Under the pieces are notes generated by a model that was given only the letters and a program-made list of their open reading frames with translations, did not search any database and had not been told where the DNA came from. Shown one piece after another: positions 50,791 to 57,111 of a stretch of DNA of 64,000 nucleotides; position 1 is the stretch's first letter; each line of letters starts with the position of its first letter. The position numbers were made by a program, and so were the translations under genes. This DNA comes from Alphaproteobacteria bacterium (lineage in GTDB: Bacteria > Pseudomonadota > Alphaproteobacteria > Rickettsiales > Deianiraeaceae): the NCBI GenBank assembly GCA_025363115.1, contig JANYEN010000031.1:5608-69607 (forward strand), read 5' to 3'.

Positions 50791-50835
50791 TGGTGGGTCT
50801 GAAGACTTGAACTCTGACTTCTTCCTTATCAGAGA
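50791..50835 (-). repeat. degenerate copy of the 3' half of tRNA-Ile(GAU); att-like direct repeat
   Basis: TGGTGGGTCTGAAGACTTGAACTCTGACTTCTTCCTTATCAGAGA aligns to 57035-57082 of the intact tRNA-Ile. By hand alignment about 41 of 45 positions match, with 3 gapped positions. The orientation is the same. The T-stem no longer pairs and the 5' half is absent. Confidence 0.75.
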
Positions 50836-51418
50836 CGTAAATACCTTTTAATTTATTGCTGTAAACCTTAATTGTCAAGGGAGTTTGTAAAATTATTAAA
50901 TTCGTGAAAAACCAATAAATATTTTCTATATCCATATAGATTAATGGCCCACAGGATAAGGTAAAATTCTTATTTTCTCTTGATTTTAGTATTTTAGAAA
51001 ATATTTTTTATATTATTAATTCTCTACTTTATGAGTCTATCCAAAACTACTGAAAACAACTACAAGAAGGATTCAATTATTTCGCATCTCTCTCAAGTCA
51101 TGTAAAATAGGCTATAGTTTTCGCTGAATCTATATATTGTCAACCAAATATGATGAAGTAATAGCTTTCATAAAAAGCGAAAAAACTAAAGTCGATAATA
51201 GAGTGATATTCCTTAATAAATAATGTTTTACAAGAAATAGCCAACTTGAAGACAGCGAAAGCTAATCAAATTCAAAATGCGTTAAATCAAATAAATATTC
51301 CTGCCGATTCTAATATCTTACAAATAATTCCTAATTCTGCATCTGAGTCAGCAATTCAGTGTGCCACTGGTAATCCCCATTTTATGTAACTTGGTATAAT
51401 GCGGGTAGTTAATTGATT

Positions 51419-53346
51419 TAAAAATTTTCCCGTTTATCCCTAAAACATAAGTATTTTTTTCTTGACAATAAAAACCAACAATGCACTATACTTTTAGATT
51501 AAATAAAAAGTATATGAAAAACATAACAATTCAGCAGTTTTTTAAGAAGTTTTCAAGTGATGAGATATGCTTAGAACATGTAATGAAATCAAGATATGGA
51601 ATGAGCGGAACTTGTCATCACTGCGGAAAAGAAACAAAATATTCAAGAGTTAAAAGCCAAAGAGCTTTTGCTTGTCAATGGTGCGGACATCATGTTTACC
51701 CTTGCGTTGACACACCTTTTCATAACTCAAAAACATCTTTGCAGTTATGGTTTTATGCAATCTATTTATTTAGCACAACAAGACACGGCGTACCAGCAAA
51801 AGAACTTGAGCGTCAGTTAGGTGTTACTTACAAATGTGCATGGCGTATGGGTCATGAAATACGTAAGCATATGAGTGATGTGTAAATGGAAACGATAAAT
51901 TAAGCGGTATTGTACAAGTTGACGAGACCTATGTAGGTGGCGAGCAACAAGGCAAGCGTGGGCGTGGTAGTGAAAATAAAACCATTGTTTTTGCAATATT
52001 AGAAACTGGAGGTAATATAATTGCTGAAGTTGTTGACGATGTTAAAAAAGCTACTTTGCAACCAATTATTGAAGCTAACTTTGAAAAAGGCAGTGAAATT
52101 CATAGCGATGAGCTACGTTCTTATAAAGGACTTGATCAAAAAGGTTACGAACACGAAACAGTTAATCATTCAGCTGGTCAATATGCAGACTTGGTAACTG
52201 GTTGCCCTGTAAACGGTGTTGAAAACTTTTGGTCGCATTTGAAAAAAGCAATCAATGGAACTCACGTGCATGTATCAAAAGAATACTTAGCAAATTATGT
52301 TGCAGAGTTTGAATACAGATTTAACTTTCGTCAAGCTCCTCAGTTGATGTTTGATGAGCTAATTTCTTCTTTTTCTTCGGTTGATAAGGTTTCTTGGGTT
52401 GAGCAGGCGGAATAACTGGTTTTGAAACCATTGATTTTATTGTATTGTCAATCGTTTCTTCGTCTCCATCGTTTTGCTTTTTGTGTTCTTTTATGAACTC
52501 TTGCATTGCAAGTGGGTCTTTTAGGGCTTGTTTAAGGGTGGTCATAGTTAAGGAATATAAGGATTAATGATAATTTTAATTTTACTATCCTTGATATCAA
52601 AATCTCCTTGTATTGTAAAATCAATATAATGTATATATCCGTCTATTAAAGGACCAAAAATACTTTGGATTCCTAAACATTTTAGGGTAAAGTTAGTTAT
52701 TTTATCTATAACTAATGCCTCTATTTTACCAGTTTGCCTGTAGCAGGAATTTTAAAATGTATAACAATCCCTAGTTCGGTAGATACAAAACTATTATCCT
52801 CATTTCTCACACAAAAAGCGCGTCCCAGTTTAAAAACGCAACATTAGGTTGTTTCTCCAATATATCTGCATGTAAGTTAGGTATTCCATAGAAGTTTGTT
52901 TCACTATATCTGGTGAGGTCTTCAAGAGATGTTAAAGGAAATGGTTGTTTTTCTTCATTTTTTTTGTAGATATATTATTAATGGCTTCTATTATTTCAGT
53001 TTTTACATCTTTAGTAGTGAATTATTTTTGTTGTATTTTTTCTACTTACTAGGCATTTAACTAATAATCCAGCTAATAAAAACTATAAAAAATTGGGCTA
53101 AAAATTGCCATAAAAACACATCCAATCATACCACTAAAAATAAGAATCCTACCGAACTATTTTTCATGGTTTTCATAAAAATTACAAATTTGAGCAATGA
53201 ATGATATATTTGACTCAGTTTTTGAGATTGACAACATTCATATTTACAAATAAAATTAGTTACAAATTTTTTGAGAATGACGTATCTTTTTTATTTTCAA
53301 TGTAAATTAATGCTTGTGCTTTAGGGATAAACGAGAAAAATTATTA
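51419..53346 (+). mobile_element. IS1595-family insertion sequence (about 1.9 kb) with imperfect terminal inverted repeats
   Basis: The left end at 51419-51451 (TAAAAATTTTCCCGTTTATCCCTAAAACATAAG) is the inverted complement of 53313-53346 (CTTGTGCTTTAGGGATAAACGAGAAAAATTATTA). About 29 of 34 positions match by hand. An ISXO2-like transposase lies inside. I found no target-site duplication. Confidence 0.6.
51481..52415 (+). pseudogene. IS1595-family (ISXO2-like) transposase, interrupted by one frameshift near 51879-51885
   Basis: The N-terminal Zn-ribbon (CHHCGKE...CQWCGHHVYPC) runs in frame 1 to the stop at 51885. Translation continues in another frame as VNGNDKLSGIVQVDETYVGGEQQGKRGRGSENKTIVFAILETGGN...IHSDELRSY...VENFWSHLKKAINGTHVHVSKEYLANYVAEFEYRFNFR. 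Confidence 0.75.
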
Positions 53347-53489
53347 CAATCATAATAAGTAATGATTTTTTTGTAAAAGAGTTTTGGTATAAATTTATGC
53401 AGTTCTATAATATTCATAGTTCTCAAAAAATCAAATAAATGCTGTTTTTATTATCCACTATTGTTAATAGGTGGTATTTTACTTTTTAA

Positions 53490-53519
53490 TTGACATTATA
53501 TTGAAATAAACACTAATAT
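53490..53519 (+). promoter_or_regulatory. candidate sigma-70 promoter of the 1107-aa gene
   Basis: TTGACA (53490-53495), an 18-nt spacer and TAATAT (53514-53519). It ends 35 nt upstream of the ATG at 53554. Confidence 0.4.
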
Positions 53520-53553
53520 TAATTCATGTGGTTTTATTAATTTTATTGAACCT

Positions 53554-56500: not shown

Positions 56501-56877
56501 ATACACGTCATGATTGGGCACTCCTTAAATTAGATAAACCAATTGGTAATAATTTAGGATGGTTAGGTGCTCAATGGATATCAGGAATAAATGCATATGA
56601 AGGATCAAAAGCTACTGTTACTGGTTATGGTCAAAAAACATTACCTATGTATACTCATACTGATAGCATTATTTCTAGTCAAATACCAGAATTTCTTTAT
56701 TATTTAGTAGATACAGTAGAGGGTACAAGTGGCGCCCCTATATACAGAAAGAGAACCAATCGTGTTATTGGAATACATACAATGTCAGTTTCACCAAGAT
56801 CATGTAATGCGGGCATACGCATAACAAAAACTTTGTTTAATATTATTTGTCGAGTTAGGAATTTTGTGATACCATAA
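53554..56877 (+). CDS. large modular protein: 2 x LRR-like repeat modules, Ig-like/beta-sandwich modules, C-terminal trypsin-like (S1B-type) serine protease
   Basis: 1107 aa. Two repeats of about 135 aa cover aa 61-190 and 208-345 (Y.IN.DLTID..G...L.....I.Y.PYKFN.I...F....CNL.SL.N.P..V.G.F......ANPGIFT..DI..TG). Two Ig-like modules share a WQ...P....W pattern, at about aa 350-452 and 718-835. The protease triad candidates are TWGH(940)NIY, HD(987)WALLKLD and EGTS(1059)GAPIY. There is no N-terminal signal peptide. Confidence 0.7.
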   Translation: MSEHKQNLPQSPTKLERTQKNLKNETKIELNGQARQKYLENMNSWLQNIANLKPSINNQPGYTINNDLTIDVKGTIDLTGKDIRYLPYKFNKITNDFLISGCNLESLNNSPNEVGGKFQCCNNHLTSLEGIENMKVKGNFEYIFYPAWSLPAILVNDHIDGNPGIFTSQDITNTGCQVEGIVRGYSLQQKQKQKDKIKNWIDSVLRVWSYIINEDLTIDITGDVNLENVNIKYFPYKFNRIRGNFYANNCNLKSLKNTPYNVEGDFCVNGNFLIDFEYSPKFVWDYQCLNNQIKSLKGLEDVFILYDFIYVKSRDSTANPGIFTEDDIRKTGANIQEKVYAYSKQEKQATLHPEDVVALIGEEAYFTILNLNLEPNETIRWQYRPANSLESDPWIDLNDQNGHHKGTHTGQLVVTSSFTQLNNNGDEYRAVFSDKKTKTAPILSNSSILHLENIAAEDIVEVNLPSFNFDSTTSVTVNAGQSIKLNPTTFPAFVENGSFSIEYKFGELSEWLTIQNLIRLDAGENSSYSSSNAFGQIIFKNAGPHLVSVSGVINTGRPMSLKINAFNVANNTASHNISYALKIDVLGIEEAYLKTRFGSWGEGTDPEKMNYNTYSEITLHVGNKIWLDGSITAGTDQIKIEYKYDLYQKWLPLENSSLSIIDGKIDFVTRGSIGYYYTELIDTFITPPRTMFLKLSSKYYNHYCTHVLIIHVSGIFAITENLPDITELPNGTSEAVMAVNFTEGYEASIQWQVKPSLGDWTIITDGTIPSNLSSLSLTYAGATEKELKISRIGPQHENFSFKAIVTKIPRPKKIDNKALLSPVISVSKSTTLKFFSLPERAIIPIGMKIVNGYPSPADILPTAGFTNDLNYTSFNPYKPDSIPSHRMIVGGTDDREIVTNYNDFPYSCIFYMRMYKKNSPGFGNGTGFLISKDTILTWGHNIYDCEKKEYRGNFEFSSASPSAIITAKVIGVWVDEEYIATGNTRHDWALLKLDKPIGNNLGWLGAQWISGINAYEGSKATVTGYGQKTLPMYTHTDSIISSQIPEFLYYLVDTVEGTSGAPIYRKRTNRVIGIHTMSVSPRSCNAGIRITKTLFNIICRVRNFVIP

Positions 56878-56930
56878 GTTACAAATATCGCTACAATAAT
56901 ATACGCTATGAAGAAAATTATATTATAATT

Positions 56931-57018
56931 ATTAAATATATTTTGTATTTAATCTAAAAATATAGTAGATTGTTGGTTTTTATTGTCAAAAAAAATACTT
57001 GTGCTTTGACGGTAAATA
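56931..57018 (-). repeat. inverted 88-bp fragment of a second IS1595 copy (left end plus first ~50 nt of the transposase gene)
   Basis: The reverse complement of 56931-57018 aligns to 51430-51520. The aligned stretch includes TTGACAATAAAACCAACA followed by ATCTACTATATTTTTAGATTAAATACAAAATATAT, against ATGCACTATACTTTTAGATTAAATAAAAAGTATAT in the full copy. Identity is roughly 80 percent by hand. Confidence 0.7.
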
Positions 57019-57034
57019 GTTTAAAGGTTATAAA

Positions 57035-57111
57035 TGGTGGGTCCGGGAGGACTTGAACCTCCGACCTCTTCCTTATCAGAGAAGCGCTCTAACCAGCTGA
57101 GCTACGAACCC
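57035..57111 (-). tRNA. tRNA-Ile (anticodon GAU), CCA encoded
   Basis: The reverse complement is GGGTTCGTAGCTCAGCTGGTTAGAGCGCTTCTCTGATAAGGAAGAGGTCGGAGGTTCAAGTCCTCCCGGACCCACCA. It folds as a cloverleaf with anticodon loop CTGATAA. Confidence 0.95.

Follow-up and report, generated by a model that had tools for sequence, protein, structure and literature searches.

Genomic islands that tyrosine integrases insert into genes for transfer RNA (tRNA; its gene, tDNA) are marked by a regenerated tRNA gene and a displaced 3′ fragment of that gene in direct orientation, as compiled in Islander (Hudson, Lau & Williams 2015, PMC4383910). In 2083 of the 3919 Islander islands, the integration site falls in the anticodon-centred sublocation 'A' (PMC4383910). 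Direct repeats of 44–48 bp that reach from around the anticodon to the tRNA 3′ end are a known mark of such insertions. Partial tRNA duplications have been described as pervasive, and the 21-kb island PYG1 carries 44-bp direct repeats of a tRNA 3′ part that differ by 1 bp (van der Gulik et al. 2023, PMC9897764). Degraded integrative elements are also known from the Rickettsiales, namely RAGE in Orientia and Rickettsia (PMC10732058). Here, we analysed a stretch of 64,000 nucleotides (nt) from the alphaproteobacterial contig JANYEN010000031.1 (assembly GCA_025363115.1), hereafter the window, in which about 6.2 kb lie between an intact tRNA-Ile(GAU) gene and a decayed copy of its 3′ part next to yidC. 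This segment probably goes back to a mobile element that inserted itself site-specifically into tRNA-Ile(GAU) and has since eroded, leaving an old, immobilised relic remodelled by IS1595, a family of insertion sequences (IS).

The locus is like Islander islands in that an intact tRNA gene and a cognate fragment in the same orientation stand at the two ends, with the insert on the 3′ side of the gene, and in that the repeat extends from the anticodon stem to the tRNA 3′ end, corresponding to sublocation A. Its 6.2 kb place it at the small end of the Islander size range. Unlike in those islands, the repeats have diverged by four substitutions and three deleted nt, and the interior is reduced to one gene and IS debris. 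Among the features that Islander relies on, the orientation, the sublocation and an empty site (in distant relatives) were found, but a tyrosine integrase was not; since there is no integrase gene, such a relic would be discarded by the filter of Islander, beside which Williams 2002 is reportedly named for islands integrated into tDNA. As in PYG1, the insert is closed on its far side by a direct repeat of the tRNA 3′ part, although the repeats of PYG1 are nearly identical and the putative relic described here is decayed and rebuilt by IS elements. The locus also recalls RAGE, with eroded integrative remnants mixed with transposases and a possible host-acting cargo in an obligate-intracellular-type alphaproteobacterium. 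Unlike RAGE, however, the insert yielded none of the hallmark genes (tra genes, RAGE integrase), and the organism is distant from the RAGE hosts, its YidC being at most ~42% identical to that of named Rickettsiales. The feature is thus an ordinary representative of a well-known kind of tDNA-fragment scar.

tRNA-Ile(GAU) and its partial copy

The intact tRNA-Ile(GAU) gene lies at 57035–57111 on the minus strand, as an earlier note on this DNA had read it, and is called by both ARAGORN and the Rfam tRNA model (71.7 bits). Its 3′ CCA end faces the insert and represents the attL side. Local alignment and blastn paired the minus-strand segment 57032–57082, comprising tRNA positions 29–76 and 3 nt past the CCA, with a decayed, attR-like 3′ fragment at 50788–50835, also on the minus strand. 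In this alignment 44 of 51 columns are identical, with four mismatches and three gap columns, and the blastn E-value within the window is 8.8e-9. The earlier note had aligned by hand a slightly shorter copy of 45 nt in the same orientation (50791–50835), and our recount returned the 41 matches, four mismatches and three gaps claimed there. A block of 16 nt covering the anticodon stem-loop, 50820–50835 on the minus strand, was recovered by the repeat search as identical to 57067–57082 and is presumed to be the crossover core. Across the 3′ part the two copies are 91% identical, and the homology then breaks off at tRNA position 29, on the 5′ side of the anticodon stem, as abruptly as the note had described.

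All four substitutions between the two copies have G or C in the gene and A or T in the fragment, which is the direction expected of a non-functional sequence in an AT-rich genome. In addition, the fragment has lost 3 nt relative to the intact gene. On folding, it does not form a T arm, in line with the unpaired T-stem noted previously, and it was not called as a tRNA by ARAGORN or by a relaxed-threshold search (E ≤ 1). The fragment is the sole secondary match to tRNA-Ile in the 64 kb, the runner-up being an unrelated tRNA-Ala; local alignment and blastn of the window hence give no sign of the dispersed tRNA-like repeat that the note had named as a possible refutation.

We also looked for a hidden, decayed 5′ half in front of the fragment. 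With ordinary scoring, the 45 nt upstream of it are not significantly similar to the 5′ half of the tRNA (p = 0.49), a further scheme gave p = 0.43, and a value of 0.044 was reached only when GC-to-AT changes were rewarded, so that this candidate was not accepted. A near-threshold Rfam match to HPnc0260 at 56932–57073 is an artefact that arises from the antisense sequence of the tRNA T arm.

Genes for tRNA-Ala(UGC) and tRNA-Ile(GAU) are typically located in the ribosomal RNA (rRNA) spacer. In the 64-kb window, tRNA-Ala(UGC) at 18940–19015 and tRNA-Ile(GAU) at 57035–57111 are both solitary, and no rRNA is present.

The tRNA-Ile/yidC junction in relatives

On the far side of the fragment lies yidC (49039–50772, minus strand; Pfam YidC_periplas and 60KD_IMP). 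Its start at 50772 is 18 nt from the CCA end of the fragment, and the adjacency reported before is correct. Following the note's suggestion to look for an empty site, we compared the three nearest relatives with readable DNA, L010, L013 and L011, whose YidC proteins are 62, 43 and 42% identical to that of the window, respectively, and which are accordingly distant. In each of them yidC is preceded, at a distance of 15–36 nt, by an intact tRNA-Ile(GAU) of equal orientation that is orthologous to the gene at 57035–57111 (junctions at 3836–3928 in L010, 577–690 in L013 and 1839–1931 in L011), and none of the 6.2-kb segment is present in between. The region 50769–50835, i.e. the fragment, the spacer and the start of yidC, is colinear with the tRNA-Ile/yidC junction both in L010, at 81% over 70 nt (E = 3e-9), and in L013. 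Around the intact tRNA-Ile of the window, homology to the relatives ends within a few nt of the gene.

These sequence comparisons show that the ancestral order was tRNA-Ile directly upstream of yidC. Because the fragment is colinear with the junctions of the relatives, it would be the displaced original 3′ end of tRNA-Ile; and since it occupies the ancestral position of that end, about 6.2 kb away from the working gene, the 3′ part of the working gene must have been supplied by incoming DNA. The linkage of the two genes is specific to this clade. Outside the three nearest relatives, a tRNA was found upstream of yidC in none of 82 more distant loci (Candidatus Bandiella, one alphaproteobacterial metagenome-assembled genome (MAG) and, as negative controls, 80 loci from a profile-based metagenome scan), with Candidatus Bandiella showing the classical rpmH-rnpA-yidD-yidC order. 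Such a linkage would imply co-transcription of yidC with the tRNA.

The homologues of YidC comprise one relative at 62% identity and one partial sequence at 69% (66% of the protein covered), all others being at most 43% identical; the named matches, at ~40–42% identity, belong to Midichloriaceae and other Rickettsiales. They point to a deep and poorly sampled lineage. Single-protein YidC scans for closer relatives returned genome contigs of only 32–33% identity and, among metagenome contigs, no match.

In the relative with a YidC of 42% identity, an IS1595 transposase fragment and a Bro-N gene lie directly 5′ of tRNA-Ile, with more IS1595 copies nearby (L011, 1124–1669, and the contig of protein P0005). 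Mobile-element genes therefore occur near this tRNA in another lineage as well.

Layout and composition of the insert

Read from the tRNA gene towards yidC, the insert consists of 7–9 nt, a stump of an IS end, a protease gene, a frameshifted IS1595 element and a 578-nt arm, which is followed by the tRNA fragment and yidC. The arm (50836–51413) is non-coding, having no Pfam or PHROGs match in six frames, and its GC content of 28.4% equals the background. The window as a whole has 29% GC, and the entire insert 30.5% compared with a background of 28.9%. As the note had stated, there is no housekeeping gene inside the insert, which holds only the IS1595 transposase pseudogene and an open reading frame (ORF) of 1107 amino acids (aa) with a Trypsin domain.

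With regard to the GC comparison with the flanks proposed earlier, the transposase does deviate, with a GC content of 36.3% against 28.7% for the background and a GC content at third codon positions (GC3) of 0.27–0.28, while none of 23 other genes exceeds 0.235. This agrees with the description of the transposase part as more GC-rich than its surroundings. The protease gene, in contrast, has a GC3 of 0.174, which is in the native range and does not mark it as foreign.

The IS1595 element and a second IS end

The IS1595-family element spans 1.9 kb on the plus strand (51414–53352) and was delimited by its transposase domains and its terminal inverted repeats, which are 80% identical over 65 nt (51414–51474 and 53288–53352). 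The transposase gene (51481–52415) is split by one frameshift near 51885, with a Zn_ribbon_IS1595 domain (PF12760, E = 3e-7) and an ISXO2-like DDE_Tnp_IS1595 domain (PF12762, E = 5e-44) lying in two frames, and the frameshift is repeated in an independent MAG assembly. The transposase has 6168 homologues at E ≤ 1e-20; the nearest of them reach no more than 68% identity and are spread over very diverse taxa. At the flanks of the element, no 8-bp target-site duplication was found, with at most 5 of 8 positions matching. The Zn-ribbon and DDE_Tnp_IS1595 transposase and the long terminal inverted repeats are those of the IS1595 family, in contrast to the absence of an intact transposase frame and of an 8-bp duplication and to a non-coding tail of ~900 nt within the IS. 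This tail, between the transposase stop and the right inverted repeat (52416–53287), has no detectable coding potential except for a Lys/Pro-rich ORF of 74 aa on the opposite strand (52321–52545), and may be a decayed passenger region.

A second, truncated left end of IS1595, a 90-nt stump at 56936–57027 on the minus strand, was detected by blastn, repeat search and alignment. It runs from the terminus through the promoter into the first 12 transposase codons, with the ATG changed to ATC, and is an inverted copy of 51414–51515 (88% identity over 74 nt, E = 1e-19) that starts 7–9 nt from the CCA end of tRNA-Ile. Consequently, inverted and outward-facing IS left ends bound the region 51414–57027. 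This 5.6-kb region makes up 90% of the segment and encloses exactly one intact gene, that of the protease, with spacers of 201 and 58 nt. This geometry is that of a Tn10-like composite. As in Tn10 and Tn5, two inverted, outward-facing IS ends surround a passenger gene; unlike in these composites, one IS is a 90-nt stump and no target duplication was seen. The earlier picture of one simple island with one cargo gene has to be given up in this respect, because the second IS end turns 51414–57027 into an IS1595-bounded unit.

Independent assemblies of the same organism break at the left terminus of the IS, with L001 ending at 51520, L002 ending at 51451 and L005 starting at 51422. These breaks suggest further copies of the ~100-nt IS end elsewhere in the genome.

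Integrases of genomic islands usually adjoin the regenerated tRNA gene. Given that the stump occupies this very position, an IS-associated deletion is a plausible route by which the integration module may have been lost.

The modular protease gene

The intact gene at 53554–56877 on the plus strand encodes a modular protein of 1107 aa, in which an N-terminal module of ~110 aa, present twice, and a central region precede a C-terminal serine protease domain of the S1B, glutamyl-endopeptidase-like type. Its sole Pfam domain, Trypsin (residues 924–1087), scores 30.1 bits (cut-off, 20.6). Over its C-terminal 270 aa, the protein aligns with the structure of the Bacillus intermedius glutamyl endopeptidase (BIEP; PDB 1p3c) at an E-value of 1e-14, and the His, Asp and Ser motifs (GH, D-W-A-L-L-K and G-T-S-G) are in register with 1p3c. 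Judged by these triad motifs, the domain is a predicted S1B peptidase. It shares the His (GH), Asp (D-W/F-A-L/V) and Ser (G-x-S-G) motifs with S1B glutamyl endopeptidases such as BIEP and the V8-type enzymes; unlike in BIEP, it lies behind ~830 aa of repeat and other modules, and the protein has no N-terminal signal peptide.

The duplicated module (53730–54600; residues ~60–140 and ~190–300) has no Pfam, NCBIfam or meaningful PDB match, and the central part has no meaningful PDB match either. In a representative library of 1.84 billion proteins, 8277 matches were obtained (E ≤ 0.001), most of the strongest falling on the N-terminal module, which in the library matches often occurs in many tandem copies. 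The full-length protein is an orphan with only domain-wise homologues. The combination of central region and protease domain was found in a single other protein, P0128, which is 29% identical and is encoded beside an rve-type IS in an unrelated genome of 5.85 Mb. No paralogue of the protease is present in the window.

The native GC3 of the gene suggests that it is either old in this genome or derived from a similarly AT-rich donor. Moreover, an open frame of 3.3 kb at 29% GC argues that the gene is maintained, presumably by selection. The note had taken it for the selected cargo of the island, but it may instead have been delivered by an IS, and its composition is native. It may have arrived together with the IS copies or may merely have been bracketed by them.

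Origin of the segment

A site-specific integration would account for the locus as follows. The attP of the element would have carried a tRNA replica of ~48 nt that began in the anticodon stem and ended shortly beyond the CCA. Its recombination with the gene would have taken place at the anticodon-loop sublocation, presumably catalysed by the element's own tyrosine integrase. Thereby an intact tRNA would have been regenerated at one end (57035–57111), and the original 3′ end would have been displaced to its place beside yidC (50788–50835). The integration module would have been lost later, IS1595 would have invaded at least twice with deletions trimming the insert, and the displaced fragment would have decayed under AT-biased mutation. 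What survives would then be the 578-nt non-coding arm and the 5.6-kb IS1595-bounded unit with its frameshifted IS and one intact protease gene. The geometry together with the tRNA-Ile/yidC junctions of the relatives favours the footprint of tRNA integration that the earlier note had recognised, and the decayed fragment and the lack of any integrase trace agree with its description of the island as immobilised and eroding. The repeat is not a target-site duplication of an IS, because the nearest IS end on the yidC side is 578 nt away from the fragment.

Several observations weigh against this integration. The X-masked six-frame translation of 50836–53553 was searched for integrase and excisionase remnants against Pfam and PHROGs (E ≤ 1 for each) and yielded only the IS1595 transposase, as the note's own reading, which had found no integrase, would have it; the insert beyond these coordinates consists of the protease ORF according to Pfam. 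Apart from the IS transposase, no mobility gene was found in the insert, nothing else in it stands out by its composition, the GC3 of the protease being native, and the phage and plasmid collections contain no DNA similar to the insert. In addition, since 90% of the insert is bounded by IS ends, most of it need not have come with a tRNA-targeting element. Finally, the empty sites are known only from distant relatives (YidC 42–62% identical) and from no sister strain; MAG GCA_043762065.1 and two SRA runs are 100% identical to the window, and all of them carry the insert; a literature search on the assembly and run accessions brought up nothing.

The role of IS1595 itself leads to a somewhat different history, in which the protease was delivered or later captured by IS1595, and 51414–57027 is a Tn10-like composite or an alternative-end transposition unit inside an older, mostly erased island of which ~590 nt are left. 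We regard this as a serious possibility, albeit one falling a little short of an even chance, and it refines the integration of an element into tRNA-Ile(GAU) rather than opposing it. The inverted left ends at 51414–51515 and 56936–57027 (88% over 74 nt, E = 1e-19), which bracket exactly one intact gene with spacers of 201 and 58 nt, and the position of the stump 7–9 nt from the tRNA end are what such a delivery would leave. Besides, the only architecture-level homologue of the protease, P0128, also adjoins an IS, and the assembly breaks at 51422–51520 hint at more copies of the IS end in the genome. However, for either choice of the termini of the 5.6-kb unit no 8-bp target-site duplication is seen (at most 4 of 8 positions match), and of the two IS copies one is reduced to a 90-nt stump while the full-length one carries a frameshift. 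The GC3 values of the protease (0.174) and the transposase (0.27–0.28) do not look like those of recent co-travellers, and no second copy of the 5.6-kb unit is known.

The two tRNA sequences could also have arisen without any integration, by a local duplication of tRNA-Ile whose yidC-side copy lost its 5′ half and decayed while the IS and the protease gathered in between. Two copies in direct orientation, one of them kept intact, would be expected in this scenario as well, and TTGACAATTAA stands upstream of both tRNA-Ile copies, with exact matches at those two sites only. This pairing loses much of its weight on closer comparison, since the shorter motif TTGACAAT is common in the window (14 sites, 4.5 expected) and the promoter pair ranks only 18th of 91 in flank similarity among these 14 sites. 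Likewise, decay-aware scoring brings out a likeness between the tRNA 5′ half and the 25 nt upstream of the break (p = 0.044), but the similarity is gone under ordinary scoring (p = 0.49) and fails correction for the three schemes. The 3′ part, by contrast, keeps an identity of 91% until it breaks off sharply at a canonical att sublocation, and the insert has no similarity to the region upstream of the intact gene. A simple duplication is therefore improbable in our view. That the 45–48-mer is a chance match or a dispersed tRNA-like repeat unrelated to the borders of the insert has nothing in its favour and, for the sequence available, can practically be dismissed, given the blastn E-value of 8.8e-9, its status as the only secondary match in 64 kb, and its location exactly at the position of the tRNA-Ile 3′ end of the relatives with colinear flanks.

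Promoter motifs and the gene upstream of tRNA-Ile

Within the 578-nt arm, a sigma-70-like site, TTGACA-17-TAAATT (50878–50850, minus strand), lies 15 nt upstream of the tRNA-Ile fragment and points outward towards the fragment and yidC. In the relatives, yidC is probably too near to tRNA-Ile for a promoter of its own and would be transcribed from the tRNA promoter. The insert may have cut yidC off from that promoter, and the site in the arm may now drive it. As the promoter scan is overall at chance level (39 sites, 37 expected), this site is treated as a hypothetical promoter for yidC. Of the 14 TTGACAAT sites, 6 lie between 50.8 and 57.2 kb; examples are 50871–50878, 51462–51469, 56982–56989 and 57149–57156. 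This motif is probably the extended −35 element of the organism. A duplication of the tRNA promoter along with the fragment was considered and rejected: the alignment gave p = 0.015 against random windows, but the rank of the pair among the TTGACAAT sites is unremarkable, as given above.

Taken jointly, the two ideas that the arm promoter serves the essential yidC and that the 5.6-kb unit is still mobilisable in trans are rather unlikely to hold. If true, a yidC promoter in the arm would explain both the retention of the arm and why the scar cannot be lost, and a unit mobilisable in trans would be a vehicle that spreads a giant S1B-protease effector among intracellular bacteria.

Immediately 5′ of tRNA-Ile, the minus strand encodes a protein of 659 aa (57173–59152) with no NCBIfam match. 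It has a pilin-like N_methyl motif at a Pfam E-value of 0.005, below the cut-off, in which Ser replaces the expected conserved Gly. Ala, Ser, Thr, Asn and Tyr abound in the body of the protein, a Cys-rich block lies close to its C-terminal end, and the 35% GC of its gene is due to second codon positions (GC2 of 0.46) and not to GC3.

Significance

The finding leaves the current view of tDNA integration unchanged, and its value lies mainly in annotation: an old scar of horizontal transfer is delimited precisely in a poorly sampled, deep-branching, Rickettsiales-like lineage. In this lineage, the linkage of tRNA-Ile and yidC marks a small clade, and the 1107-aa protease stands out as an accessory gene specific to the lineage and as a candidate factor for interaction with the host. 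The locus also illustrates how IS activity may act as the eraser of an island's integration module.

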